A DNA stretch of 64,000 nucleotides, taken from assembly GCA_049304015.1 (NCBI GenBank), contig JBAQNS010000009.1, positions 3,228-67,227 of the forward strand, given 5' to 3'. The stretch comes from Minisyncoccia bacterium. GTDB taxonomy: Bacteria; Patescibacteriota; Minisyncoccia; Phycocordibacterales; Zambryskibacteraceae. The notes beneath the pieces were generated by a model. The model worked only from the letters and a program-made list of their open reading frames with translations, was not told the origin of the DNA and did no database searches. The position numbers and the translations under genes are program-made. This document shows positions 37,997 through 49,583 of the stretch, piece by piece; positions within the stretch are counted from its first letter, which is position 1, and each line of letters starts with the position of its first letter.

Positions 37997-38084
37997 GAAA
38001 GCAACAACTTATTAGAGGTGTTTTTGTGTGTTAAGTTGCCTTAATCAAGTATTATTTAAATTAACTAGTATTAATAACATTAAA

Positions 38085-40085
38085 ATGAAATCTTTAATCA
38101 AATCAGCTTACAGGCTAACAGCCGTGGGTGGAATCCTCGCAGTAGCCTTCTTCGCTTTCGCGGGGAATGCGAAAGCGTATACTCAAGCAGACTTTGCAGC
38201 ATTTGATGGTGTTAATATCGGAACAAACAGTTATACGGTAAGTTCTGATATTACAGCGACATATATTAGTGGTACTGGTACTGAAACTGATCCAGTTAAG
38301 TTAACGTTAACAGGACATGCACCAATAATAACCCCATGGTTTGGCCAAAATTGGACAACGTATAACTATGTAGCAATAGGAATTAAACTACCGACGACAG
38401 GTTTTATTGGAACCCAAATAACTGGTGGAACTGCTGTATATCAAGCAGATGTGATGAGATATGATGATCTGACTAACTTTCCGAATGGCTATTACACAGT
38501 AGGATATGGAAGTATCCCATTGGCAACAGGAGGTGCCGCGCTCGGTTATTTGGACTATGAATTCGCAGCTAATTCAAATAATACTAAGAAAGACGGATTA
38601 GTTAAACTGAAAGTAATTTGGAATACAGATAGTGCACCCGAATATTTCACGATTGATATTAACGGCCTGCAATTAGATACCGCTACACACAAGTTTGTTT
38701 CTACTATTGGACAACTTACGTCAGCACTTGCTGCCGCAAATTCTGGCGACACAATTACACTAACCTCCAACATAACCACAAGTTCTGAGCTTGATATAAA
38801 CAAAGCTCTAACACTAGATGGTGCAGGACATAAATTAAGTGCTTCTTTTTTGAGAACAGATAATAGTAATAATTCTGCTATAGGAATTAAAAGTGTTGAC
38901 GGTGTAACAATAAAAAATCTTATAGTTGACGGAACAGGTGGGAGTTCAGTTTGGTTGAGTCAACTTCACGGGATAAATATATATTTATCAACAAATGTAA
39001 ACTTGAATGATGTAACAGCAATGAATTTTGGTGGTGCCGGCATTAATGTTAACGGTTCTTTAGTAACTGTAAACAACATCACAACATCAGGCAATTCATG
39101 GGGCGGTATTAATGTTGATAGACCAACAGTTACAAATACAACCACACTAACAGTAAATGGAATAAGTTCTCACAACGAAGTTAATGCTGCAATATGGAGA
39201 GATGATAATGCAAAAACAAACGTAACTGTTATAGATATGGATCACCAGTATTCTCAATCCACATATACTCATGATACAAATGTTGTAGGAACCTTGTGGA
39301 AGTTACTTGCAACAGGTCAAATTGTTCCAGAAAATGGTGAGGCTACAGTTACTCCAACAAATAAAGAAGTTGTTGTTACTGCAACGACACCAATCACGGT
39401 TAATCTGGGAAGTGTTGAAGACGCAACTATAAACTTTGATTCACTTATTACAAATGGAGAAGGAGTTATTCCTCAGACAACCATTATTTCAAATGTTGCA
39501 GAAGTAAAAATTGATGATGGTACAAAAGTCACTGCAACTGATACTAATTGGAATGGAGTGATGCAGGCACCAACAGCCGGTGATACATCAGGAACAGCTC
39601 CTGCCAGTTTCTCTGTTGGTAATACGGTTATTGAAATGGGTTCATCTCAATATACTCTGAACTTTGACAAGGCGGTGAAGATTACACTTCCTGGTGTCAC
39701 AGGTAGAGTTGGTTATAGACCAGCTGGTTCTACAGAGTGGCAGCTAATTACAACTCAGTGCACAAGTTCAACAGTTCCAGGTATCACCTCTGGTGAATGC
39801 TATGTTGCTGAAGGTGGAAATACTGTCATTTGGACTTACCACTTCACATCTTTTGGAGGACTAGAACCCATTTCTGTAAATAAATCTGGTGGAAGAAGTG
39901 GTGGAGGCAGAGCCACAATCTTACCTCCTCAAGCCTCTCCTGTAGCAGTAGGACGAGTACTCGGCGCAGAGACAGAAAATGCTGCAGCTGTAGCTCTACA
40001 GATTGCCTCCATTAAAGCTCAGTTAGCAGATTTGATTAGACAACTAATTACTCTTCTTCAAGCTCAGATAGATTCACAGAGATAA
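38085..40085 (+). CDS. Secreted parallel beta-helix surface protein (paralog) with conserved C-terminal heptad module
   Basis: Signal peptide MKSLIKSAY... (the same N-terminal 9 aa as the upstream gene); the beta-helix block NLIVDGTGGSS...GINIYLSTNVNLNDVTAMNFGGAGINVNGSLVTVNNITTSGNSWGGINVD is shared with the upstream gene; C-terminal QASPVAVGRVLGAETENAAAVALQIASIKAQLADLIRQLITLLQAQI. Confidence 0.7.
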   Translation: MKSLIKSAYRLTAVGGILAVAFFAFAGNAKAYTQADFAAFDGVNIGTNSYTVSSDITATYISGTGTETDPVKLTLTGHAPIITPWFGQNWTTYNYVAIGIKLPTTGFIGTQITGGTAVYQADVMRYDDLTNFPNGYYTVGYGSIPLATGGAALGYLDYEFAANSNNTKKDGLVKLKVIWNTDSAPEYFTIDINGLQLDTATHKFVSTIGQLTSALAAANSGDTITLTSNITTSSELDINKALTLDGAGHKLSASFLRTDNSNNSAIGIKSVDGVTIKNLIVDGTGGSSVWLSQLHGINIYLSTNVNLNDVTAMNFGGAGINVNGSLVTVNNITTSGNSWGGINVDRPTVTNTTTLTVNGISSHNEVNAAIWRDDNAKTNVTVIDMDHQYSQSTYTHDTNVVGTLWKLLATGQIVPENGEATVTPTNKEVVVTATTPITVNLGSVEDATINFDSLITNGEGVIPQTTIISNVAEVKIDDGTKVTATDTNWNGVMQAPTAGDTSGTAPASFSVGNTVIEMGSSQYTLNFDKAVKITLPGVTGRVGYRPAGSTEWQLITTQCTSSTVPGITSGECYVAEGGNTVIWTYHFTSFGGLEPISVNKSGGRSGGGRATILPPQASPVAVGRVLGAETENAAAVALQIASIKAQLADLIRQLITLLQAQIDSQR

Positions 40086-40104
40086 TTAGGATTAGATAAA
40101 TATT

Positions 40105-40132
40105 AAAAACTACCCTATTTAGGGTAGTTTTT
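40105..40132. terminator. Bidirectional-type terminator (CTACCCT-attt-AGGGTAG flanked by A5/T5)
   Basis: Seen directly. Confidence 0.6.
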
Positions 40133-40150
40133 ATATGCACTTTTTATCTA

Positions 40151-40179
40151 TTGACACACGGTGTTATTGAGAGTATACC
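40151..40179 (+). promoter_or_regulatory. Sigma70-like promoter TTGACA-17 nt-TATACC upstream of MBG gene
   Basis: Seen directly; it lies inside the annotated 5' extension of ORF 40151, so the true start is the ATG at 40193. Confidence 0.5.
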
Positions 40180-40192
40180 GAGGGTATCAAAT

Positions 40193-40678
40193 ATGTTGAC
40201 AAAGACAAAAAATTATAGGCAAGCAAACTATGTAGTGTTTTTAGCACTTGTTTTTACTGTAAATTTTTTATTTGTTTCTACTACCTTTGCAGTCGGTTCT
40301 ACCCAACAAACAATTTTGTTTGCTTCCATACCAGATAAGATTTATGGGGATAGTGACTTTATCATTAATGCCACATCAACAGATTCTGTTACTGGAGAAC
40401 CTACAGGACTACCAATTAACTTTGTTCTAAATCAAGGACCTTGCTCGATTAATTTGGTATCAGGAAGTACAACAATTCACATCATCGCAGCTTCAAGTAC
40501 TCCATGTAGACTCAAGGCAAACCAGGAAGGAAATGATACTTATGCGCCTATTGATAATGTTAACGTATCATTTTTAGTGTCACCCAAACCAATTACTATA
40601 AGTGTTTCTAATACAGAAAATAAAATTTTTGGAGAGCCAGATCCGGAGTTTGCATATACTGGAGCAGATTCCTTATGA
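40193..40678 (+). CDS. MBG-domain surface protein, N-terminal part (gene interrupted by frameshift at the 3' end)
   Basis: Signal/TM N-terminus; ends inside an MBG domain (KPITISVSNTENKIFGEPDPEFAYTGADSL-stop). Confidence 0.5.
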   Translation: MLTKTKNYRQANYVVFLALVFTVNFLFVSTTFAVGSTQQTILFASIPDKIYGDSDFIINATSTDSVTGEPTGLPINFVLNQGPCSINLVSGSTTIHIIAASSTPCRLKANQEGNDTYAPIDNVNVSFLVSPKPITISVSNTENKIFGEPDPEFAYTGADSL

Positions 40679-41202
40679 CGTTTAATGCGGGTATGCTGAA
40701 TATTGATGCGAGACCTTTAACTATAACTGGTGTGACAAATTCAAAAATATATGATGGTTCAATTTCAGCTGCTGCCATTCCAATAATCACCTCAGGCACA
40801 TTGGCTCCTGGTGATGTGGCGACCTTGTCTGAAACTTATGACTCTGAAGGAGTCGGCTCTGGCATAGCACTTAATGTTGATATTTTGATAAATAATGCTC
40901 TTGGTGCAGATGTAAGTGACAACTATATTACTACAACAATAAGTGGTGTTGGAGATATATTAGCAGTCCCTCAAGAGGTTCAAACACCAGAGCCTGTAAG
41001 GAGCTCTGGTGGGGGAAGATCGACATCAAGATTACAGACATCTACAGCTTTAACCGCACCAACGGTTGGTCGTGTTCTTGGTGCAGAGACAGAGAACACT
41101 GCTGCTGTAGCTCTACAGATTGCCTCAATCAAAGCTCAACTGGCTGATTTAATTAGACAATTAATAGCACTTCTACAAGCACAGATTCTTTCTGCACAGT
41201 AG
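40675..41202 (+). CDS. MBG-domain surface protein, C-terminal part with conserved C-terminal heptad module (ATGA overlap with upstream part)
   Basis: Begins with the tail of an MBG repeat (TFNAGMLNIDARPLTITG), then a second MBG repeat, then TVGRVLGAETENTAAVALQIASIKAQLADLIRQLIALLQAQI. Confidence 0.5.
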   Translation: MTFNAGMLNIDARPLTITGVTNSKIYDGSISAAAIPIITSGTLAPGDVATLSETYDSEGVGSGIALNVDILINNALGADVSDNYITTTISGVGDILAVPQEVQTPEPVRSSGGGRSTSRLQTSTALTAPTVGRVLGAETENTAAVALQIASIKAQLADLIRQLIALLQAQILSAQ

Positions 41203-41274
41203 AAATAAAATCAGAATAATCAAACAAAAAACTTGCCCATAGACTTGGGTGAGTTTTTGATTTATAATCATATT

Positions 41275-42258
41275 ATGATTAAGTGGTTCAAAAAACACTT
41301 TATACCTCATGAAGGCAATGACCATCAGCCTCATTTTCTTCGTACCAAAAATATTCGAGCAGTCGTTCTAATTCTTTTTGTTTTGGAGTTAGGAGTTTTT
41401 GCCATTCCTTATATACCTGCAATAGGTCCAGCATACAACAATTACCTCGCAGCAGTTTTGCCCGGAGTGTTGGACAGTCTTTCTAATCAAACAAGACAAG
41501 AAAATCATTTAGCCACCCTTACTGTTAGCCCACTCTTAAATAAAGTGGCTGAACTGAAAGCGAAGGACATGGCAGAAAAAGGATACTTTGCCCACACCAG
41601 TCCCGAAGGCAGAGCGCCTTGGTATTGGTTCGATAAAGCTGGTTATAAATATTTGTTCGCTGGAGAGAACTTAGCAGTAGACTTCACTGATTCAAAAGAT
41701 GTTACTTTGGCCTGGATGAATTCTCCTACACATAGAGCCAATATAGTGAAAGGCGTCTATACAGAAATGGGTACTGGAGTAGTGAGTGGTAACTTTGAAG
41801 GTCACCCAACTATTTTTGTTGTCCAAGTCTATGCGAGACCACTAACTACGATTGCTACTGTTTCTGAACCAAGTGCAGTTTCAAATATTAAGCCAACAAC
41901 AACTCAAACTACTAAGACTGTTGAATCCAAGGTCCTCGGTGCAGAAGTGGCCTTAGATGCAAACGTCACTTCACCCACACAACCTAAATCAAATTTGCTC
42001 ATGCAGTATGTTACTTCTCCTGGACGTGTAGCCAATATGATTTTTGTTATTTTGGGCATAATGATTTTACTCGCCTTAGTACTGAAATTATTTATAAGAA
42101 CAGATAAACGACATCCAAAACTCATTACCAATGGACTTGTTGTTTTGGTACTAATCTTTGGAATTTATAGTGTGAATAGTTACATAACCAAGAATAAAAT
42201 TTCACATAATATTACTTTCTACAGCTTTAACAATGAGAACCTTACTGACACTTACTAG
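41275..42258 (+). CDS. CAP/SCP/PR-1 (YkwD-like) domain protein, membrane-anchored at both ends
   Basis: CAP motifs (HYTQVVWRATxxVGCA-like: GHPTIFVVQVY; HRANIVKGVYTEMGTGVV) and N- and C-terminal TM helices. Start taken at MIKWFKK, downstream of a TATAAT box. Confidence 0.7.
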   Translation: MIKWFKKHFIPHEGNDHQPHFLRTKNIRAVVLILFVLELGVFAIPYIPAIGPAYNNYLAAVLPGVLDSLSNQTRQENHLATLTVSPLLNKVAELKAKDMAEKGYFAHTSPEGRAPWYWFDKAGYKYLFAGENLAVDFTDSKDVTLAWMNSPTHRANIVKGVYTEMGTGVVSGNFEGHPTIFVVQVYARPLTTIATVSEPSAVSNIKPTTTQTTKTVESKVLGAEVALDANVTSPTQPKSNLLMQYVTSPGRVANMIFVILGIMILLALVLKLFIRTDKRHPKLITNGLVVLVLIFGIYSVNSYITKNKISHNITFYSFNNENLTDTY

Positions 42259-42998
42259 AGCACCTCTATTTCAGAAATTTTATTTGATTTAAATTCATAT
42301 AGACTGGCTGGTCGGGAACGATTACCAATTCTCTTGTGATGTAGTCTCTCTAGTATCTTTAATTTCAATATTTTCTTCCTAAAATTACGCTTATCCAAAT
42401 CAGCCTTGAGGATACTCTCGTATGCTTGTTCGAGTTCAGTGAGAGTAAATTCTTTGGGCATCAGTTTGCACATCAATGTTGTATAAGTGATTCTTGATTG
42501 GAGTCTCCTTAGAGCTACTTTGAGAACTTCATCGTGGTCATAGGCAAGATTTGATAATTGATCAACATGTTTCCATGACAATTCTCTAGTATTAATTTTT
42601 TCTGTTTCAGTTAATGATTCCCATGGCACTAATCCAATATAGGCGACTGCCACAACGCGTCCACGAGGATCTCTATTAATGCGGCTAAATGTATATAATT
42701 GCTCAATATGAATTTTTTTAGTTGAAATCATGCCCGCTCTATCTTTCACTAGACGTACTACCGCTTGCTCAGCTGTTTCAGTAGGGAGCATAAGGCCACC
42801 AGGAAGTCCTGGTCTATCTACAAAGTGGGGGATATGGTTGACTTTCATGATGCGGACAAGAAGTTCCTTATTGTGAATAGTGAATAAGGCTATATCTGCG
42901 GCCAAGACAGCGAAACGTAGGTGTTTAGGAGAACTATTTTTAGGCATAAATAATTTATAGCAACATACAGATATATTGTCAAATATACACTTATCCAC
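42255..42998 (-). CDS. NrtR-like regulator (degenerate Nudix domain plus C-terminal winged-helix)
   Basis: Nudix fold with an incomplete Nudix box (GLPGGLMLPTETAEQAVVRLVKDRAG lacks the REx2EE glutamates) and a C-terminal DNA-binding-like region. The likely start is the Met at 42947. Confidence 0.6.
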   Translation of the reverse strand: MDKCIFDNISVCCYKLFMPKNSSPKHLRFAVLAADIALFTIHNKELLVRIMKVNHIPHFVDRPGLPGGLMLPTETAEQAVVRLVKDRAGMISTKKIHIEQLYTFSRINRDPRGRVVAVAYIGLVPWESLTETEKINTRELSWKHVDQLSNLAYDHDEVLKVALRRLQSRITYTTLMCKLMPKEFTLTELEQAYESILKADLDKRNFRKKILKLKILERLHHKRIGNRSRPASLYEFKSNKISEIEVL

Positions 42999-43132
42999 AG
43001 TTTAGTAATTGTATAGTTGACACTAAGTAAATTAAGGAATAGTGTGAGGTTAGACATATAAACCAAGCACTATTCTGAACCATTGACTGTGTCTTATAAG
43101 TGTTATAGAGTAGTGCGGGTTTAGACCGTTCT

Positions 43133-44023
43133 TTGTCAGAGAGATTTAGTTTAGCTGACAATCTATTTAGTTCAATTTTGACCTCAAAAGGAGGGATATT
43201 GATTATCAAAGATCCTGGCTCTGGGAAGAGCTATGAAGTTGGTCAAAGAGTGGCTGAGACCGAAAGGTATCGGCTTTATCTCTGTAGACCAGAGGGTGAG
43301 TCTTCGGACCACCTGCTTCAAATCGCGGTGGAGGTGGAGCATAATGCTGCCCTCGATCGCGCGTCGTACGTTCTGGAAAGGCTCGAAGAAGAAGCTCGCA
43401 AGATCGAGGAAGAGTTCGCCAAGGTGAAAACCGAGCCGAATCACTTCCTGAATTACCAACTCTGTTTCCCCAAGGTCGTGGGTTCATTCATACCAGACGA
43501 TCAGGGTGGCAGACGAGTAAACATCCTTTGCTTCAGAGAGGTGGAGGATGTAGGCAAGGTTGTACCGCTACAGAACCTCGTAGAGACGGACAAGCTTCGT
43601 GCAGATTTGAGGTCGAGTGCTTGGATCATGGGGAAACTCCTCAAGATCCTCATCTTCCTCAATGATGCGAATGTGGTTGCTCATGATCTGTCGCTCGGCA
43701 ATGTTCTCATCGAACCCGAGCAACACTACGTCATCATTTTCAGTTGGGCTGACGCCGAATTGAAAGCTGGTGCAGTAGGTAGAGCAATCACGAGAAGTGA
43801 AATTCAAGCAGCTGCTCGCGTTGTCATCGAAGTGCTGGGAGGTACTCTCGAAGGAGGTATCCCCGGTGATGGTGGTCAAGAGCATGTTCAGTATCAGAAG
43901 TTTCTCTTCGACCTCGCACATGGCAGTGAAAGTAACGCGGCACTGGCTCACATGTCGTTCTACAAGTTGGTTGATAGTTTGTGGCCACGCGGTTTCTATC
44001 CATTCACCACCCACTCTCGGTAA
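43133..44023 (+). CDS. Protein-kinase-like/APH-family phosphotransferase (divergent) - first gene of high-GC island
   Basis: Gly-rich loop IKDPGSGKSYEV and catalytic loop VAHDLSLGNVLIE (compare HGDLHPGNIL of APH/CotS and HRDLKPENIL of kinases), followed by IIFSWADAE. High-GC codon usage. The start is ambiguous: TTG at 43133, or TTG at 43199 after an AAGGAGGG SD. Confidence 0.55.
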   Translation: MSERFSLADNLFSSILTSKGGILIIKDPGSGKSYEVGQRVAETERYRLYLCRPEGESSDHLLQIAVEVEHNAALDRASYVLERLEEEARKIEEEFAKVKTEPNHFLNYQLCFPKVVGSFIPDDQGGRRVNILCFREVEDVGKVVPLQNLVETDKLRADLRSSAWIMGKLLKILIFLNDANVVAHDLSLGNVLIEPEQHYVIIFSWADAELKAGAVGRAITRSEIQAAARVVIEVLGGTLEGGIPGDGGQEHVQYQKFLFDLAHGSESNAALAHMSFYKLVDSLWPRGFYPFTTHSR

Positions 44024-44040
44024 AACGGGAAGGAAGGACG

Positions 44041-45165
44041 ATGGGAAGCAGAACATTCTCGAGGGATGCCTACGTCAAGGCGAGCAGCTTGTACACCAAG
44101 CCGGGTGAGTCAACGACTGCCCGAGGTGAACAAGAAGTTCGTCGGACAGGCAAGCTGAATCCACTTGTGGATCCGGCTGAATTCGGAGTAGTGCGTGAAT
44201 CACGCATTCGCCTCGAAGATCGAGAAGGAGGTGGCTTCACTGTCACCGTGGGCACACCAGTGCCTGTCGAGTATCGTCTGGACACCACTGGTTCCATGGG
44301 TGACAACGTCGAACGGGCGTACAAGGCACTGCCGCATACGTGCGAGCATGTGGCCGCTGTACTGCCAGGCCGAGACCCCTTCTACTGCGCTTCGATTTTC
44401 GGTGATGTCGTCGACCAGTTCGTACTGTGTCGAGGACAATTCGAAGCCGAAGCAGAGAAGATGGTCAACCAACTCACGCTCATGGTTCCAGAAGGTAGCG
44501 GTGGAGACACCCCAGAAGATCCTCAGTACGGACTCTTCGGTGCCGCCTACCTTACCAACGCTTATCTGCAACGTATCGGTTTGCGCTCCTATGACTTCAC
44601 TGTCACGGACGCACCGATGCATGATCTGATTAGCGCCAAGCAGCTCAAGCGTATCTTCGGTGATGAAGTGTTCGAGAAGCTGAAGGAAAATGGCCAGTCG
44701 ATTTCAGCGAAGGATTTACCCTCCAATACAGAGATCGTCAAGGATCTCTTGAAGAGGGCTCATGCCTTTGCTTTCATGGTTGGCAATTCTGCCACCCACG
44801 CCTGGACCAGCCTCTACGGTTCCGAACACGTGATTCTTCTGCCCCGGATCGAGTACACTCCTCACATCATGGCCGTTATCATTGGCCTGACGGAAGGAAC
44901 TCTCGATTTGCGTTCATCCAAGGATTTCTTGACTGAACGCAACCTCAGCAAGGTCGAAGCACAGGGCATCATCGACGCAGTGGCGCACATCCCGCTCGGT
45001 GCACAGACCATGTGCCCCAATTTCGACAAGTTGCCCAAGGCAGGTGACATCTTCAAGGAGAAGACCGACCTCTGGCCGATCGATCCGGAAGACATTCCTA
45101 CTTCTGCTGCTCCGAAGAAGGGCAAGAAGGGCGGCAAGGAATCTGGCAAGGGTGGGTGGCTCTAG
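44041..45165 (+). CDS. von Willebrand factor A (vWA) domain protein with MIDAS motif
   Basis: RLDTTGSMGDN (DxTGS MIDAS), a later VTDAPMHD element, and a Lys/Gly-rich C-tail. GGAAGGAAGGA SD before the ATG at 44041. Confidence 0.7.
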   Translation: MGSRTFSRDAYVKASSLYTKPGESTTARGEQEVRRTGKLNPLVDPAEFGVVRESRIRLEDREGGGFTVTVGTPVPVEYRLDTTGSMGDNVERAYKALPHTCEHVAAVLPGRDPFYCASIFGDVVDQFVLCRGQFEAEAEKMVNQLTLMVPEGSGGDTPEDPQYGLFGAAYLTNAYLQRIGLRSYDFTVTDAPMHDLISAKQLKRIFGDEVFEKLKENGQSISAKDLPSNTEIVKDLLKRAHAFAFMVGNSATHAWTSLYGSEHVILLPRIEYTPHIMAVIIGLTEGTLDLRSSKDFLTERNLSKVEAQGIIDAVAHIPLGAQTMCPNFDKLPKAGDIFKEKTDLWPIDPEDIPTSAAPKKGKKGGKESGKGGWL

Positions 45166-45192
45166 GCTTTCACTTCGACCGAGGACGTGACG

Positions 45193-46566
45193 ATGAAAAA
45201 GATTTACGTCGTCACGGACCTTGGTCCTGGTGACGGTGGTAAGGGTGGTGTGGTCCACAAGATCAGCCACATGCAAGGTGCTCACACTATCCTCAAGGTA
45301 GGAGGAGCACAGGGAAGTCATGGAGTATCTACTTCGAGTGGAAAACGATTTGCCTTTAGTCAATTTGGTTGTGGCACCTTCGAAGGTGTTCGCACTCACT
45401 TGACCAAGAGGTTCGTTGCTTCACCTGAAGGGATACTCAACGAAGCGCAAGCTTTGGATCAAGGTTGTGGTTTGAGTGATGTCTACAGTCTGCTCACAGT
45501 GGATGAGGATGTCATTTGTGCCACTCCGTATCATGGCATCTCTTCACGCTTGAAAGAGCTTGCAAGAGGAGATAATCTTCGCGGTACGATTGGGACAGGG
45601 GTTGGTGAGGCGTTTCGCTACAACCAACGTTTTCCTGAACTGACTATCCGTGCGAAGGATCTCTTCAGCCAAAACCTAAGAGAGCTGCTGGCTGCAGTTA
45701 GAGACCAACTACACGTTGACCTCGAATCTGTAATTAGTGGTACTTTCTTAGAAAGTGATAGGGTCTTAGTTGAACAAGAAGTAGATCGTCTGCTTGATCC
45801 GAAATACCTTGAATTTATTTTGCATCGTTTTCGAACGGCTGCAAAGCATGTCCGAATAGTAGGCCAAGAGTATTTTCATGATCTTACCACCAGCTATGGT
45901 GTGATGGTTGTTGAAAGTTCTCATGGTGTACTGACGGATCATTTTCAAGGGTTTCATCCTCATACTTCAGCCATTCGAACACTTCCTCGCTTCACGCGTG
46001 GGATGCTCGAAGAAGTTGGATATGATGGCGAACTGGTGAACATTGGGGTAACCCGTGCATATCAAATTCGTCATGGTGCAGGGCCTATGCCAACAGCCGA
46101 TGAGGCTATGGCAGAAAACCTTTTACCAGGAAGTTCGAAGGATGAGAATCGCTATCAGGGAAAGGTGCGTGTTGGTCCACTTGATTTGGTACTGCTTCGT
46201 TATGCGATAGCAGCCTGTGGTGGACCAGATGCATTCGACGGCTTGGCTGTCACCTGGTTCGATCAAATCCAGGAGAATGGATCTTGGTTTTTGTGTCGGA
46301 GCTACAAGGGAGCAACAGATCAAAACTTTTTCACCCCACAAGGTGAGTTGAAGGTTCGATTTGGAGATGATGAAGAACAGTTGAAGTATCAGGAGGAACT
46401 TGGTCACCATCTAGAAAGGTGCGTACCAGTGCTCACAGAGCACACAGTTTCTCCTGGTCCCAACTTTAACTTCCTCACTTGCTCTGCAGTATTGAATGAA
46501 GCACTTCGAGTACCTGTACGGATGGTCTCGTTCGGATCTACCGAACAAGAAAAATTGTGTAGGTGA
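45193..46566 (+). CDS. Adenylosuccinate synthetase (PurA)-family protein, highly divergent
   Basis: PurA hallmarks present: GDGGKGG (cf. GDEGKGK), GGAQGSHG (cf. GGHNAGHT), GTIGTGVGEA (cf. GTTGRGIGP), TRAYQIRHGAGPMPT (cf. TRVGAGPFPTE), VRVGPLDLVLLRYA (cf. GWLDTVAVRRA). The Asp-binding GATTGRRRR loop is replaced by NRYQGKVRVG and Gln224 (EGAQG) is replaced by His (ESSHG). Confidence 0.75.
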   Translation: MKKIYVVTDLGPGDGGKGGVVHKISHMQGAHTILKVGGAQGSHGVSTSSGKRFAFSQFGCGTFEGVRTHLTKRFVASPEGILNEAQALDQGCGLSDVYSLLTVDEDVICATPYHGISSRLKELARGDNLRGTIGTGVGEAFRYNQRFPELTIRAKDLFSQNLRELLAAVRDQLHVDLESVISGTFLESDRVLVEQEVDRLLDPKYLEFILHRFRTAAKHVRIVGQEYFHDLTTSYGVMVVESSHGVLTDHFQGFHPHTSAIRTLPRFTRGMLEEVGYDGELVNIGVTRAYQIRHGAGPMPTADEAMAENLLPGSSKDENRYQGKVRVGPLDLVLLRYAIAACGGPDAFDGLAVTWFDQIQENGSWFLCRSYKGATDQNFFTPQGELKVRFGDDEEQLKYQEELGHHLERCVPVLTEHTVSPGPNFNFLTCSAVLNEALRVPVRMVSFGSTEQEKLCR

Positions 46567-46588
46567 ATTCAAACCACAAGGAGTAACC

Positions 46589-47737
46589 GTGGGAACTTCT
46601 GCAGAACCGACCGTTGGTGACGCTGTCACCACGAGGCTCACCGAATTGGGTGTCGAACCGACTGTGATCGAGAAGATCAGGACGGACCTCGGCGCCACTT
46701 CGGTGGACGATCTGGCTGGCCTCAACGAGAGTGATCTCGTCGGCGCCGGCATGAAGGCTCTTCCGGCGAGGAATCTCGTCGCAAAGCTCAGGAAGGCCGC
46801 AGCGGAAGCTGCTGCTCCTGCCGCAAGTGCAGTCAGCACGATGTCGTTCGAAGGCGTACTGCCGGCAGTGCCGGATGATACGTCATGGCTTGCGGCACTT
46901 CGTGCAGGTGGAGTTCTGAAGGTCGATCAGTCGACCGTCATCTCCGCCGTTCGTGCAGGACTCGCTCACCGGGTCGGACTCTTCGAAGTTCCGGATCTGC
47001 TCGTCGCAGAGATGGAGCGGTTCTCGGATGCGAACGAAGAGCAGGTCGACCCGGAGTTCTTCAAGCTCCGCAAGATGCTGACTCGCAAGTCGTACGGCGA
47101 TATCTTCGAGGCCATCGAAGGACTCGAAGGCTCGTACGTCACCGAGGGTCGCAAGAAGGAACTCTTCAGCCGTCTCGATGGCAAGTTGTGGCCGGCAATC
47201 ATCAGCTTCAACGGCGCCCTTAAGGCGTGGCAGGAAGCATGGATGCAGGGTGCAGCCAATCCTGCCATCATGATGAGCGCGATCTTTGCGGCTTCTGGTA
47301 CTGGTGGTGGAGCGATGCCTCCGGGCATGATGCAGCCACCCGATACCGGCGTCCTGCGTGACAACGCGGCAGCCGTGGCGGACGCAGTCAATCGCGTTTT
47401 CGCTGGGACTGGCGTGCAGATCGCCGCGGCCCTCGCATACGAGGCGTCGCGTATCAAGGAGACTCTCACGAACCCGCGGTTGCCCGCCCTTATCGGTGCG
47501 GCCAATCGCGACCAGATGCTTCGTCAGCTGGGTGTGGCCGTTTCGGCGACCTATCCTCGCCTCGAGATGAACCTGACCAAGTTCGTGCTGGCGGTTCTGC
47601 AGGCACAGGACCAGCCGGCCGGCAACGAAGAGCTTCAGTACTTCGGTGCCATGTACATGCTCGGGTCCCAGATCCCCTGGGAGCAGCTGGGTTCGACTGG
47701 CAAGCCGTCGGGTATCGGCGGCGGTCGTCGCCTCTAG
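46589..47737 (+). CDS. Hypothetical protein with tandem N-terminal HeH/SAP-like motifs and Gly/Met/Pro-rich central segment
   Basis: GTG start after a GGAG SD; LTELGVEPTVIEKIR and LAGLNESDLVGAGMKALPARNLVAKLRKAA helix-extension-helix patterns; GTGGGAMPPGMMQPP segment; high-GC codon usage. Confidence 0.55.
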   Translation: MGTSAEPTVGDAVTTRLTELGVEPTVIEKIRTDLGATSVDDLAGLNESDLVGAGMKALPARNLVAKLRKAAAEAAAPAASAVSTMSFEGVLPAVPDDTSWLAALRAGGVLKVDQSTVISAVRAGLAHRVGLFEVPDLLVAEMERFSDANEEQVDPEFFKLRKMLTRKSYGDIFEAIEGLEGSYVTEGRKKELFSRLDGKLWPAIISFNGALKAWQEAWMQGAANPAIMMSAIFAASGTGGGAMPPGMMQPPDTGVLRDNAAAVADAVNRVFAGTGVQIAAALAYEASRIKETLTNPRLPALIGAANRDQMLRQLGVAVSATYPRLEMNLTKFVLAVLQAQDQPAGNEELQYFGAMYMLGSQIPWEQLGSTGKPSGIGGGRRL

Positions 47738-47766: not shown

Positions 47767-47797
47767 GGGCGGATACGATTAGTGTCCGCCCTTTTTC
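47767..47797 (+). terminator. Rho-independent terminator (GGGCGGA-N11-TCCGCCC followed by T5) closing the high-GC island
   Basis: Seen directly; composition returns to low GC immediately after. Confidence 0.6.
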
Positions 47798-47807
47798 ATT
47801 GCCTAAT

Positions 47808-49583
47808 TTATGAAAGTTTAGGGAGAAAAACTCTTTGGGTAAAAAGTTTAAGTGCAGTTTGTCTAAATCCTGAATCCCAAAATACACTCTTTCCATCAAC
47901 AAGTTCGGAATGTTCAGTATGCAATCCGCCGGAGGGAGGTAAAAATTTCTTGTACCCCTTGTGCATCAGTCTGTATTGCAAGGTGTCTCTTTCAAGTTCC
48001 TCTAAGAAAACTCTTCGTGCAGGCAATCCATAAATTTCACCATTATTGTAAAAATATTGAGTCAAAAGTTTTTCGTGCAAATCTTTTATCACTTGTTTGT
48101 CTCCATCCCAAACTGCTCCAAACAAAACATGGGTCCAGTAACTTTCTCCTACGAATGGTTCTGGTTTATCAAAATCATGAACCTTTAATCCAATTGGTGC
48201 TTCCTCTAACCAAAACTCTATAGTGTCTCCATGAGCATATTTTTGAGGAAGCTTTGACTTGAGTAACTCCTTAACTCTCTCCTTATCCTCCAATTTAATT
48301 TCAGGTTTAACAAAAATAGCCAAATCTAAGTCAGAATTTGATGTCCCATAGCCCTTAAGTTTTGAGCCAAAATACAATGCCACAGGGTATAAATACTGTG
48401 CCAGCTCTGCATCATTTTCGATTATTGAGGTAATATTATTCATAATTTCTTGATCATTATTAGCCTCAGTCAAATTTTTTGAAAACGGTCCTGATAGGGA
48501 AGTGAGTTTTAGACCAAGACTCAAAAATACAGCTTCATCCAAAATATTTAATTTGTTTAATCTATAGAAAAGAGTTGAAAGTTCATCTACAGTCTCTGGA
48601 GTTTTTTTATCCCAAAGTGACATTATGATATCCTCATATTTTTTGTATATTTTTATAGCTTCATCTTGATTTACTGCTGTTGTTGACTCTATGGCATCTC
48701 GGATACCAATAACCAAGGCGAGTTTGTCATCACTAGTTACGACCTTTTCATCCTCTAGTACTAGTTTTGCTATATCACGGGCTTTTGATTCTGTATCCCT
48801 TCTCTTTCTTTCACTACTTAACCAAGCAGTGCGTCCTTCTGTGACTATTTCTGGTTCTTCAATTTCAATTCTAGCTTCAGAAACATTAATTTGCCCCAAG
48901 TATTTATCCTCCACAAGTCCCAGGTCGACCGCTACAGTGAGTGCTTCATATGCATTTTGTCTAAAGACGTCATCATCACTTTCACTGATTAAGTTTAAAA
49001 CTTTATCTACACTAATTAATTCCTTTTCTATTAATTTAGGGATTAAGTGCGCAGCCTTTACCACTCTGGGCAAATCACTTTCTCTTAATTCTACTTCTAA
49101 TACATCTCCATCAACAAAATTTGCTCGGACATCATGTATATCTAAGCATGCTTCCCATGCATTCATGTATGTTGCTCTAAATTTTTCTGCAGCTTGTGAC
49201 AGTTCACTATCAGGAGCACCTAAATTTACACTCGGTAAATATTCGAATGGCACATAAAGCAAAGCTCTTTTATAATCTGGGTTTTCAAGTAAATGACTCA
49301 ATGATTCAAACAAATCTATAACCTGCTTCTCACTCAGCTGGCCTTCATTTAGTGCCAGTTCTAACTCAATATTAGGTTTTCGCATATTAGAAATCACAGC
49401 TTCAACACTTTCAATTATTTTTTTGCGTTCTTCTATTTGTTTAATGAATACCTCATTGTCCAAAATCTTTTCTGGCCAAACATTCGACTGATTAGTTGAA
49501 TCAAGTAGTGATTCAACTGCAGGTACGGTAAATTGTCTTTTCTCTGCTGATTCTTCGTTTAGATTTGTGCCCTCTCTATACAT
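47808..49583 (-). CDS. Pol-beta-superfamily nucleotidyltransferase domain protein with large N-terminal helical region
   Basis: C-terminal GS...D.D motif (FGSKLKGYGTSNSDLDLAIFV); 591 aa. The true start is probably downstream of 49583 because of the divergent overlap with ychF. Confidence 0.5.
   Translation of the reverse strand: MYREGTNLNEESAEKRQFTVPAVESLLDSTNQSNVWPEKILDNEVFIKQIEERKKIIESVEAVISNMRKPNIELELALNEGQLSEKQVIDLFESLSHLLENPDYKRALLYVPFEYLPSVNLGAPDSELSQAAEKFRATYMNAWEACLDIHDVRANFVDGDVLEVELRESDLPRVVKAAHLIPKLIEKELISVDKVLNLISESDDDVFRQNAYEALTVAVDLGLVEDKYLGQINVSEARIEIEEPEIVTEGRTAWLSSERKRRDTESKARDIAKLVLEDEKVVTSDDKLALVIGIRDAIESTTAVNQDEAIKIYKKYEDIIMSLWDKKTPETVDELSTLFYRLNKLNILDEAVFLSLGLKLTSLSGPFSKNLTEANNDQEIMNNITSIIENDAELAQYLYPVALYFGSKLKGYGTSNSDLDLAIFVKPEIKLEDKERVKELLKSKLPQKYAHGDTIEFWLEEAPIGLKVHDFDKPEPFVGESYWTHVLFGAVWDGDKQVIKDLHEKLLTQYFYNNGEIYGLPARRVFLEELERDTLQYRLMHKGYKKFLPPSGGLHTEHSELVDGKSVFWDSGFRQTALKLFTQRVFLPKLS

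Follow-up and report, generated by a model that had tools for sequence, protein, structure and literature searches.

A non-canonical PurA-superfamily protein in a conserved gene module of Patescibacteria and phages, with a putative link to NAD regulation

Introduction

The closest described relatives of the gene considered here are adenylosuccinate synthetase (PurA; EC 6.3.4.4; E. coli structures 1ade, 1kjx, and 1cg0) and PurZ/PurZ0 of Z-genome phages, which is likewise a phage-carried PurA-superfamily enzyme with an altered substrate. PurZ has kept aspartate ligation and acts together with Z-genome companion genes. The gene in question, gene C, lies in a 64,000-nucleotide stretch (hereafter, the window) of contig JBAQNS010000009.1 from a Minisyncoccia bacterium (Patescibacteria; assembly GCA_049304015.1). 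Its product shares with PurA the fold over its full length, the P-loop GDxGKG with the catalytic Asp, the His (H41 in E. coli), the guanine-specifying Asp333, and the S-x-G-P and GAGP elements, but is only ~25% identical, carries the substitutions N38Q, T129I, Q224H, and V273H, lacks R143, and has its aspartate loop replaced. Gene C does not have purB adjoining it, and it is nearly always adjoined by genes for a kinase-like protein and a vWA-domain protein. Compared to PurZ, the aspartate site is gone, and PurZ chains were not detected by profile search.

Other described systems resemble the gene module rather than gene C itself. Proteins with a vWA domain commonly work with a dedicated NTPase, and the TerY-P triad joins a vWA protein to a kinase/phosphatase. 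The module described here likewise couples a cytoplasmic vWA protein with a metal-ion-dependent adhesion site (MIDAS) to a kinase-type protein and to an NTP-using protein, but differs from TerY-P triads and MoxR-vWA pairs in having neither a PP2C phosphatase nor an AAA+ MoxR, and its NTP-using partner has the PurA fold. In NrtR regulons (Rodionov et al. 2008, PMC2330246), the operator is a 21-bp palindrome with the core GT-N7-AC, from which NrtR is released by its effector, ADP-ribose. The locus has the same type of regulator adjoining the operon and a 19–21-bp palindrome with a GT-N7-AC core; unlike the genes of known NrtR regulons, kinase-like, vWA, and PurA-like genes were not found listed as NrtR targets in the literature. 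A possible analogy to NARP1, NARP2, and NARP3 lies in phage-borne genes that respond to cleavage products of nicotinamide adenine dinucleotide (NAD+). In NARP1 (Adps + Namat), phosphoryl transfer activates ADP-ribose for its subsequent coupling to nicotinamide, and NARP3 consists of PnuC and NadR; the NARP protein families (PRPP-synthetase-like, Nampt-like, and PnuC/NadR) are unrelated to those of the module, and the analogy is drawn from the NrtR/NAD context of the Patescibacteria alone.

Results

Sequence features of gene C

Gene C: 45187..46566, + strand, 459 aa, non-canonical PurA-superfamily enzyme

The start of gene C is a GTG at 45187, with an in-frame ATG two codons downstream at 45193; the opening MTxK of its homologues favours the former. 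The protein passed the membership threshold of Pfam PF00709 (Adenylsucc_synt; 103.3 bits, E = 1.7e-29, cutoff 27), with residues 15–378 aligned to profile positions 8–346 of 416, and the C-terminal S-x-G-P element, beyond the PF00709 span, also aligned with PurA. The motifs GDGGKGG, GGAQGSHGV, GTIGTGVGEA, ESSHG, HGAGPMPT, and NRYQGKVRVGPLD fell at the positions expected from E. coli PurA (reference sequence checked against PDB 1kjx) in HMMER, hhalign, and MAFFT alignments, with D16 equivalent to D13, H45 to H41, and H246 at the Gln224 position. Motif residues were invariant or nearly so in 32 homologues (59–70% identity) and are thus a family trait rather than chance. The same homologues share other invariant pocket residues, namely H246, S261, R264, R295-H296, N321, R322, Q324, and R328. 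A position-by-position residue table of 134 clade representatives found the GTP-site and catalytic residues D16, K19, H45, D359, S448, and G450 to be conserved; in E. coli numbering, the residues kept by the clade are D13, K16, H41, T128 (Ser/Thr), T239 (Ser/Thr; S261 in gene C), R272, G274, D333, S414, and G416. As judged from these alignments, gene C encodes a full-length PurA-fold protein with the GTP site and the catalytic Asp/Lys/His retained, and by its residues it looks catalytically intact.

A first-pass annotation of this DNA had proposed that the aspartate-binding Arg cluster was replaced by NRYQGKVRVG and Gln224 by His (ESSHG), and alignments to E. coli PurA agree on both: the aspartate loop GATTGRRRRTG is represented by ENRYQGKVRVG, and neither the Arg loop nor the Gln was merely shifted (HMMER, hhalign). 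The description of the Arg cluster as lost is too simple, as the rebuilt loop keeps one Arg (R328), which no member of the clade has lost, and K326 falls on or close to the R303 position. The loop R322-Y323-Q324-G325-K326-V327-R328 takes the place of T300-T301-G-R303-x-R305-R306, and in the whole clade (n = 134) has the form x-(W/Y)-Q-G-x-(F/V)-R; because it is one residue shorter in gene C, the equivalences of R303, R305, and R306 are ambiguous in the alignment. The substitution of Q224 by His is specific to the Patescibacteria branch (27 of the 134 representatives), the other 107 keeping Gln.

The annotation had further held that the motifs for GTP and inosine monophosphate (IMP) were retained, which was borne out for the GTP site, D13, K16, and H41, but not for N38, T129, R131, R143, and V273. 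Across the whole clade, the IMP-ligand position N38 is Gln (Q42 in gene C), T129 is Cys, Val, or Ile (I135 in gene C), R131 is a hydrophobic residue, V273 is an invariant His (His296 in gene C), K331 is Trp, Cys, or His, and Arg is not conserved at the position aligned with R143, the 5′-phosphate ligand from the partner subunit. In these alignments both the aspartate site and the IMP 5′-phosphate ligands are replaced in the clade, and because the phosphate ligands have changed too, the acceptor is probably not the IMP-like molecule presumed from the kept motifs. The substituted pocket would be aromatic and His-rich (Tyr/Trp323, Gln324, His296, and His246). V273H, the changed 5′-phosphate ligands, and the partner genes D and E, NrtR/NAD link, and phage distribution described below were absent from the first-pass annotation.

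Relation to PurA and PurZ

Among 1.84 billion cluster representatives, searched exhaustively, 1351 clusters (50% identity) matched at E ≤ 1e-30; canonical PurA scored far lower in this search, placing gene C in a very large non-canonical clade. The top 120 matches, all Patescibacteria and all ~460 aa, were 59–70% identical to gene C. Source databases name the family ‘adenylosuccinate synthetase’, and the best PHROG, phrog_1211, carries the RefSeq name ‘2-aminooxy adenylosuccinate synthetase’.

The first of these names would make gene C a true, if divergent, adenylosuccinate synthetase, producing adenosine monophosphate from IMP in organisms without de novo purine synthesis, an explanation consistent with the PF00709 match, the database name, and the kept catalytic triad and GTP site. 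However, the five NCBIfam PurA equivalog models (NF002223 and TIGR00184 among them) gave 33–71 bits against cutoffs of 368–700 (71.1/402, 63/395.6, 54/700, 50/445, and 33/368), and the best PDB PurA match had an E-value of only 3e-12 with the single sequence (5e-17 with the family profile). The Thr-Thr and at least two Arg of the loop are lost, N38, T129, R143, Q224, and V273 are changed, and no adenylosuccinate lyase (purB; Lyase_1/ADSL) occurred within 8–10 kb in the Pfam-annotated neighbourhoods of eight loci, though the gene may lie elsewhere in those genomes. Together with the ties to kinase-like and vWA genes and the presence in phages, this makes a genuine PurA very unlikely; it was rejected, as in the first-pass annotation, and the label ‘adenylosuccinate synthetase’ appears unsupported for the family. 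A PurZ-type enzyme, making 2-aminoadenylosuccinate for Z-base (2-aminoadenine) DNA, would fit the PHROG assignment and the occurrence in phages, but the PHROG label is a family name with no tested function, and long bacterial PurA chains were matched at 1e-17 while none of the 21 PDB matches at E ≤ 10 was a PurZ chain, in a PDB copy whose PurZ content is unconfirmed. The aspartate loop, which PurZ needs too, is absent, and the scanned neighbours (kinase-like, vWA, HhH, and nucleotidyltransferase genes) included no Z-genome companions. The PurZ assignment, which the annotation had also set aside, was rejected as extremely unlikely.

The gene module in the window and in Patescibacteria

Gene A: 43133..44023, + strand, degenerate protein-kinase-like, probably a pseudokinase in this genome
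Gene B: 44041..45165, + strand, vWA domain, intact MIDAS (DTTGS), disordered tail, conserved C-terminal Trp-Leu
Gene D: 46589..47737, + strand, N-terminal HhH/SAM-like domain and an all-helical domain with no recognisable fold
Gene E: 47808..49583, − strand, 591 aa, Pol-beta-type nucleotidyltransferase core (GS...SDLDLA) after a ~370-aa helical region
Candidate sigma-70-like promoter of the A–D operon: 43083..43111, + strand, TTGACT-17-TAGAGT, from a consensus scan only
G+C-rich hairpin and T run, likely terminator: 47767..47791, no strand assigned, 10-bp stem with 7 GC pairs followed by TTTTT, between convergent D and E

Gene C is preceded by genes A and B and followed by gene D, all four co-directional, with gene E convergent and a regulator gene, nrtR, divergent. 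Related loci were gathered from 80 metagenome contigs, 2 genome contigs, 11 viral contigs, and several long contigs, of which the single-protein scan of genome contigs provided the 2 and an alignment-based scan of metagenomes the 80. The order A-B-C-D with convergent E was kept in essentially every locus in which C was at least 38% identical and the contig was long enough, and A-B-C synteny covered ~50 Patescibacteria loci. This strongly conserved synteny upholds the suggestion that the kinase-like and vWA neighbours form a dedicated module with gene C. No description of a kinase-like/vWA/PurA-like module was found in the literature, and A-B-C-(D-E) is a conserved and apparently undescribed gene module.

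Gene A matched phrog_3043 ‘kinase’ (5.5e-5), and its family profile matched the CK2 catalytic-loop/DWG region (E = 2e-5). Among Patescibacteria, the beta3 Lys is replaced by Gln in 21 of 31 sequences and the HRD Asp is not conserved; the window copy has Gln for the beta3 Lys, no HRD Asp, and Ser for the metal-binding Asp of DWG, such that the protein lacks the residues expected of an active Ser/Thr kinase and is probably a pseudokinase in this genome. The profile of gene B had no match among PDB sequences, and it was the predicted structure alone that showed the vWA fold. The homologues of gene B (window 45120–45165; L062–L087) all end in a low-complexity, predicted-disordered tail that closes with GGWL in Patescibacteria and, in the versions from phages and high-G+C bacteria, with [D/R]L or RF; the terminal hydrophobic residue is conserved, and the tail end looks like a docking peptide. 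A 100% identical protein (P0241, from a ‘Minisyncoccia bacterium’ metagenome-assembled genome) places the start of gene B at 44041, not 43981.

Gene D is confined to the Patescibacteria form of the module, and its helical domain had no structural neighbour among those searched. An identical protein (P0121) starts at the GTG at 46589, which leaves a 22-nt gap after gene C; the 71-nt overlap of the longest D open reading frame (ORF) with gene C (46496–46588) was accordingly dismissed as an ORF-calling artefact. Gene E matched the Pfam families Polbeta (1.7e-5), MTPAP-like (4.4e-4), and NTP_transf_2 (2.8e-3). In two natural fusions, P0398 (1129 aa) and P0478 (1102 aa), C and E are joined end to end (hmmsearch with the E profile, E = 3e-126 and 3e-121), which argues that the two act together; the P0398 locus (L093, 3421–6810) is A-B-C::E, with gene D absent. 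A further PurA-like protein, P0423 (700 aa), has a ~230-aa C-terminal extension that matched neither Pfam nor the A–E profiles and in which kinase-like strands (...VIVLDLGAL...) could be seen by eye. A first k-mer enrichment yielded only TTGACAA, a −35-like box that 15 of 31 loci carry ahead of gene A.

The module also differs from its surroundings in base composition. The window has ~37% G+C compared to 52–55% between 43.1 and 47.75 kb, with the A–D block (43133–47737) at 0.53 and its flanks at 0.38. G+C at third codon positions (GC3) is 0.52 for A, 0.62 for B, 0.39 for C, and 0.70 for D, compared to 0.24–0.34 in neighbouring genes, with E host-like (0.26). The block was richer in G+C than its flanks in all 28 related loci (28/28; mean, +0.083), reflecting either repeated lateral movement or selection for G+C at silent sites.

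The triad in phages and distant bacteria

A PurA-like protein was present in 203 Mycobacterium/Mycolicibacterium phage records (Bxz1-type), where it is 34% identical to gene C and annotated as PurA-like where listed. The triad of phage Gizmo (L087, 152782–156555) consists of the kinase-like gp267, the vWA protein gp268 (351-aa gene), and the PurA-like gp270, with hhalign probabilities of 98.5 for gene A against the Ser/Thr kinase gp267 and 97.9 for gene B against gp268. Gizmo gp270 (cluster C1) shares the non-canonical clade of gene C and the rebuilt loop (W-Q-G-x-F-R), but keeps Gln224 where gene C has His; its kinase partner is more canonical than gene A, with generic Ser/Thr kinase matches, and there are no D or E homologues in the locus and no NrtR gene nearby. 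No record of a functional test of a Gizmo-type PurA-like protein was found in the literature. In high-G+C bacterial loci and 11 of 11 IMG/VR contigs, genes matching the A and B profiles also immediately precede the PurA-like gene, and A-B synteny extends to PurA-like relatives only 25–35% identical to gene C. A tblastn search of 50,697 phage records returned no match to gene D or gene E; the kinase-like, vWA, and PurA-like triad is therefore the conserved core, and D and E are additions of the Patescibacteria.

Neighbours of the phage triads were heterogeneous (ATP-grasp, DnaB, histidine phosphatase, amidase, AAA), with no extra conserved partner. A 623-aa ‘nucleotidyltransferase’ near the Gizmo triad was rejected as a counterpart of E, being the RNA-repair enzyme RlaP, which is unrelated to E. 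The Bxz1-type triad (L087, L092) lies within ~4 kb of the polynucleotide kinase gp264 and the intein-containing RlaP gp3, a proximity that could be an RNA-repair link or coincidence. In a phage-like locus (L078, 6312–6977), B and C are separated by an inserted gene for endonuclease VII, and distant PurA-like relatives without A and B partners were found beside Cas3 (L082, 2472–5645).

The NrtR regulator and the NAD neighbourhood

nrtR: 42255..42947, − strand, Nudix and winged-helix NrtR-family regulator, divergent from the operon
Two putative NrtR-box-like palindromes in the nrtR–A intergenic region: 42974–42992, TATTGTCAAATATACACTT, and 43007–43025, AATTGTATAGTTGACACTA, no strand assigned

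The regulator gene divergent from the operon matched NrtR_WHD (3.2e-22), AraR_C (3.5e-12), and NUDIX (3e-6); its ORF reaches 42998, with Met18 at 42947 as the probable start. The two palindromes between nrtR and gene A together form an inverted repeat, and each is two mismatches from TAGTGT-N7-ACACTA. An nrtR gene is the immediate upstream neighbour of gene A here and in ~10 other loci. The cassette of L089 lies within a complete NAD cluster, NrtR-NadB-NadA-[A-B-C-D, E]-NadE-rSAM-NadK-Nudix-NadD-PncB-PncA, and L001 reads NrtR-[cassette]-PncA-NadK-Nudix-PncB; further, PncA lies just upstream of the cassette in L007 and L028, and NadK with PncB or PncA downstream in L010 and L041. Two of the distant high-G+C triads (L072, L075) have a Nudix and winged-helix gene that overlaps the stop codon of C in a translationally coupled arrangement and aligns over its full length with the NrtR of the window (25% identity, E = 8e-15). 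Copies of TAGTGT-N7-ACACTA precede nrtR, nadB, nadE, pncA, and gene A; in 41 non-redundant loci, the motif was enriched 18- to 37-fold upstream of A, and its density at ≤1 mismatch was 0.39/kb in the 450 nt upstream of A compared to 0.010/kb elsewhere. From these predicted boxes and the gene neighbourhoods, the A–D operon appears to be co-regulated with NAD synthesis in Patescibacteria.

Other features of the window

Two adjacent predicted surface proteins in the group at 38028–40085, 40675–41202, and 41233–42258 share a near-identical ~45-aa end (GRVLGAETEN.AAVALQIASIKAQLADLIRQLI.LLQAQI), and the third protein of the group (38028–42258) contains KVLGAEV. The shared end may be a C-terminal anchoring or sorting module.

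Discussion

The reading preferred here, held at about even odds (probability roughly 0.5), is that gene C is a GTP-dependent ligase with an acceptor and a nucleophile other than those of PurA, working in an NAD+/ADP-ribose-linked module, and that phages use the triad on the same pool. Ligase chemistry, which the first-pass annotation had predicted as phosphorylation or activation of a nucleotide-like carbonyl and ligation of a different nucleophile, is suggested because D13, K16, H41, and the GTP-site residues are retained. Following PurA reaction logic, the enzyme would use GTP to phosphorylate an oxygen of a nucleotide-type acceptor by gamma-phosphate transfer, after which a nitrogen nucleophile would displace the phosphate; the acceptor would not be IMP and the nucleophile would not be aspartate. 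The predicted NrtR control and the NAD neighbourhoods make it probable that the substrate belongs to the NAD+/ADP-ribose pool. NrtR would repress the A–D operon until NAD+ cleavage causes its product ADP-ribose to build up, and the module, once induced, would work in the salvage or reconstitution of NAD+/ADP-ribose nucleotides; the triads of phages would serve to manipulate the same pool. Purely as speculation, gene C might activate ADP-ribose, or a related intermediate, so that nicotinamide or a different amine can be coupled to it, which would fit the chemistry. The bolder proposal that the whole triad is an ADP-ribose-controlled nucleotide-ligase machine, forming a C–N bond with GTP on an NAD+/ADP-ribose-derived substrate, for example in NAD+ rebuilding or in making an N-substituted nucleotide, is doubtful.

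Several observations weigh against a ligase in an NAD+/ADP-ribose module. NrtR adjoins the cassette in only about a quarter of loci, NAD genes flank it in a minority, some of which perhaps come from related lineages, and NAD genes are missing from the surroundings of the phage triads. Two of the upstream regions in which the NrtR-box motif was counted had themselves served to define it, post hoc; across the window, palindromes numbered 5 compared to 2.4 expected, which is not significant, and the window copies have two mismatches each. Regulators of the NrtR type also control regulons other than NAD, such as that of AraR (PMC9503650). The acceptor, the nucleophile, and catalysis itself are all deduced from residues and gene context, and a simple metabolic model leaves the roles of the vWA protein, the pseudokinase, D, and E unexplained.

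A different role for the same chemistry, tentative but worth weighing, is a conflict system, in which the triad would serve anti-phage defence or phage counter-defence by making or destroying a modified nucleotide, the vWA and kinase-like proteins acting as sensor or effector and the NrtR-type regulator only reporting NAD+ cleavage under attack. Such a system overlaps with the NAD+/ADP-ribose ligase and differs in being immune rather than metabolic. It draws on the triads in 11 of 11 IMG/VR relatives and 203 mycobacteriophage records, the foreign-looking composition of A–D (GC3 of 0.52–0.70 for A, B, and D and 0.39 for C, compared to a host range of 0.24–0.34; 28/28 loci), an integrase adjoining the cassette in L003, and a C-only relative beside Cas3. 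Nudix-HTH regulators and vWA proteins have also been predicted in ADP-ribose-centred conflict systems (PMC9503650), among which a kinase-like/vWA/PurA-like module is not mentioned. Against this, the Patescibacteria copies are 59–70% identical and strictly syntenic across many classes, the cassette sits in core-gene neighbourhoods and NAD operons, unlike patchy and fast-evolving defence islands, and no effector domain (nuclease, NADase, or pore) occurs in the module. B, C, and D matched no PADLOC-DB model; membership of a known defence system was rejected on the absence of any PADLOC-DB v2.0.0 match for A–D of the window, B and C of three distant triads likewise had none, and A proteins from outside the Patescibacteria gave generic kinase-domain matches only. 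Gene C might otherwise be mainly a GTP-driven switch or scaffold for B and the pseudokinase, an NTPase partner of a vWA chaperone rather than a ligase, for which MoxR-vWA pairing provides an example (PMC7824862). The catalytic degeneracy of gene A, the flexible, hydrophobic-ended tail of gene B with its look of a docking motif, and the loss of the classical PurA substrate ligands from gene C would suit such a switch. It is nonetheless an unlikely account, as D13 and H41, the catalytic base and acid, are retained, many invariant pocket residues lie outside the GTP site, as in an enzyme with a defined small substrate, and the fusion of C to the nucleotidyltransferase E suggests consecutive chemistry.

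Few substrates are known for the chemistry of PurA, in which GTP drives the activation of an oxygen so that an amine can displace it, and more than 1300 clusters (50% identity) have dropped the aspartate and IMP-phosphate sites yet keep the catalytic machinery. The module is near-universal and highly conserved in Patescibacteria, whose genomes of ~1 Mb have few accessory genes. Solving the reaction of gene C would probably add an enzyme activity and might add an NAD+/ADP-ribose pathway; it could also explain a cassette of more than 200 sequenced mycobacteriophages and would correct a systematic mis-annotation as ‘adenylosuccinate synthetase’. An ADP-ribose-controlled ligase, if this is what the module encodes, would give the Patescibacteria a private route for recovering NAD and phages a further means against NAD+-depleting immunity.

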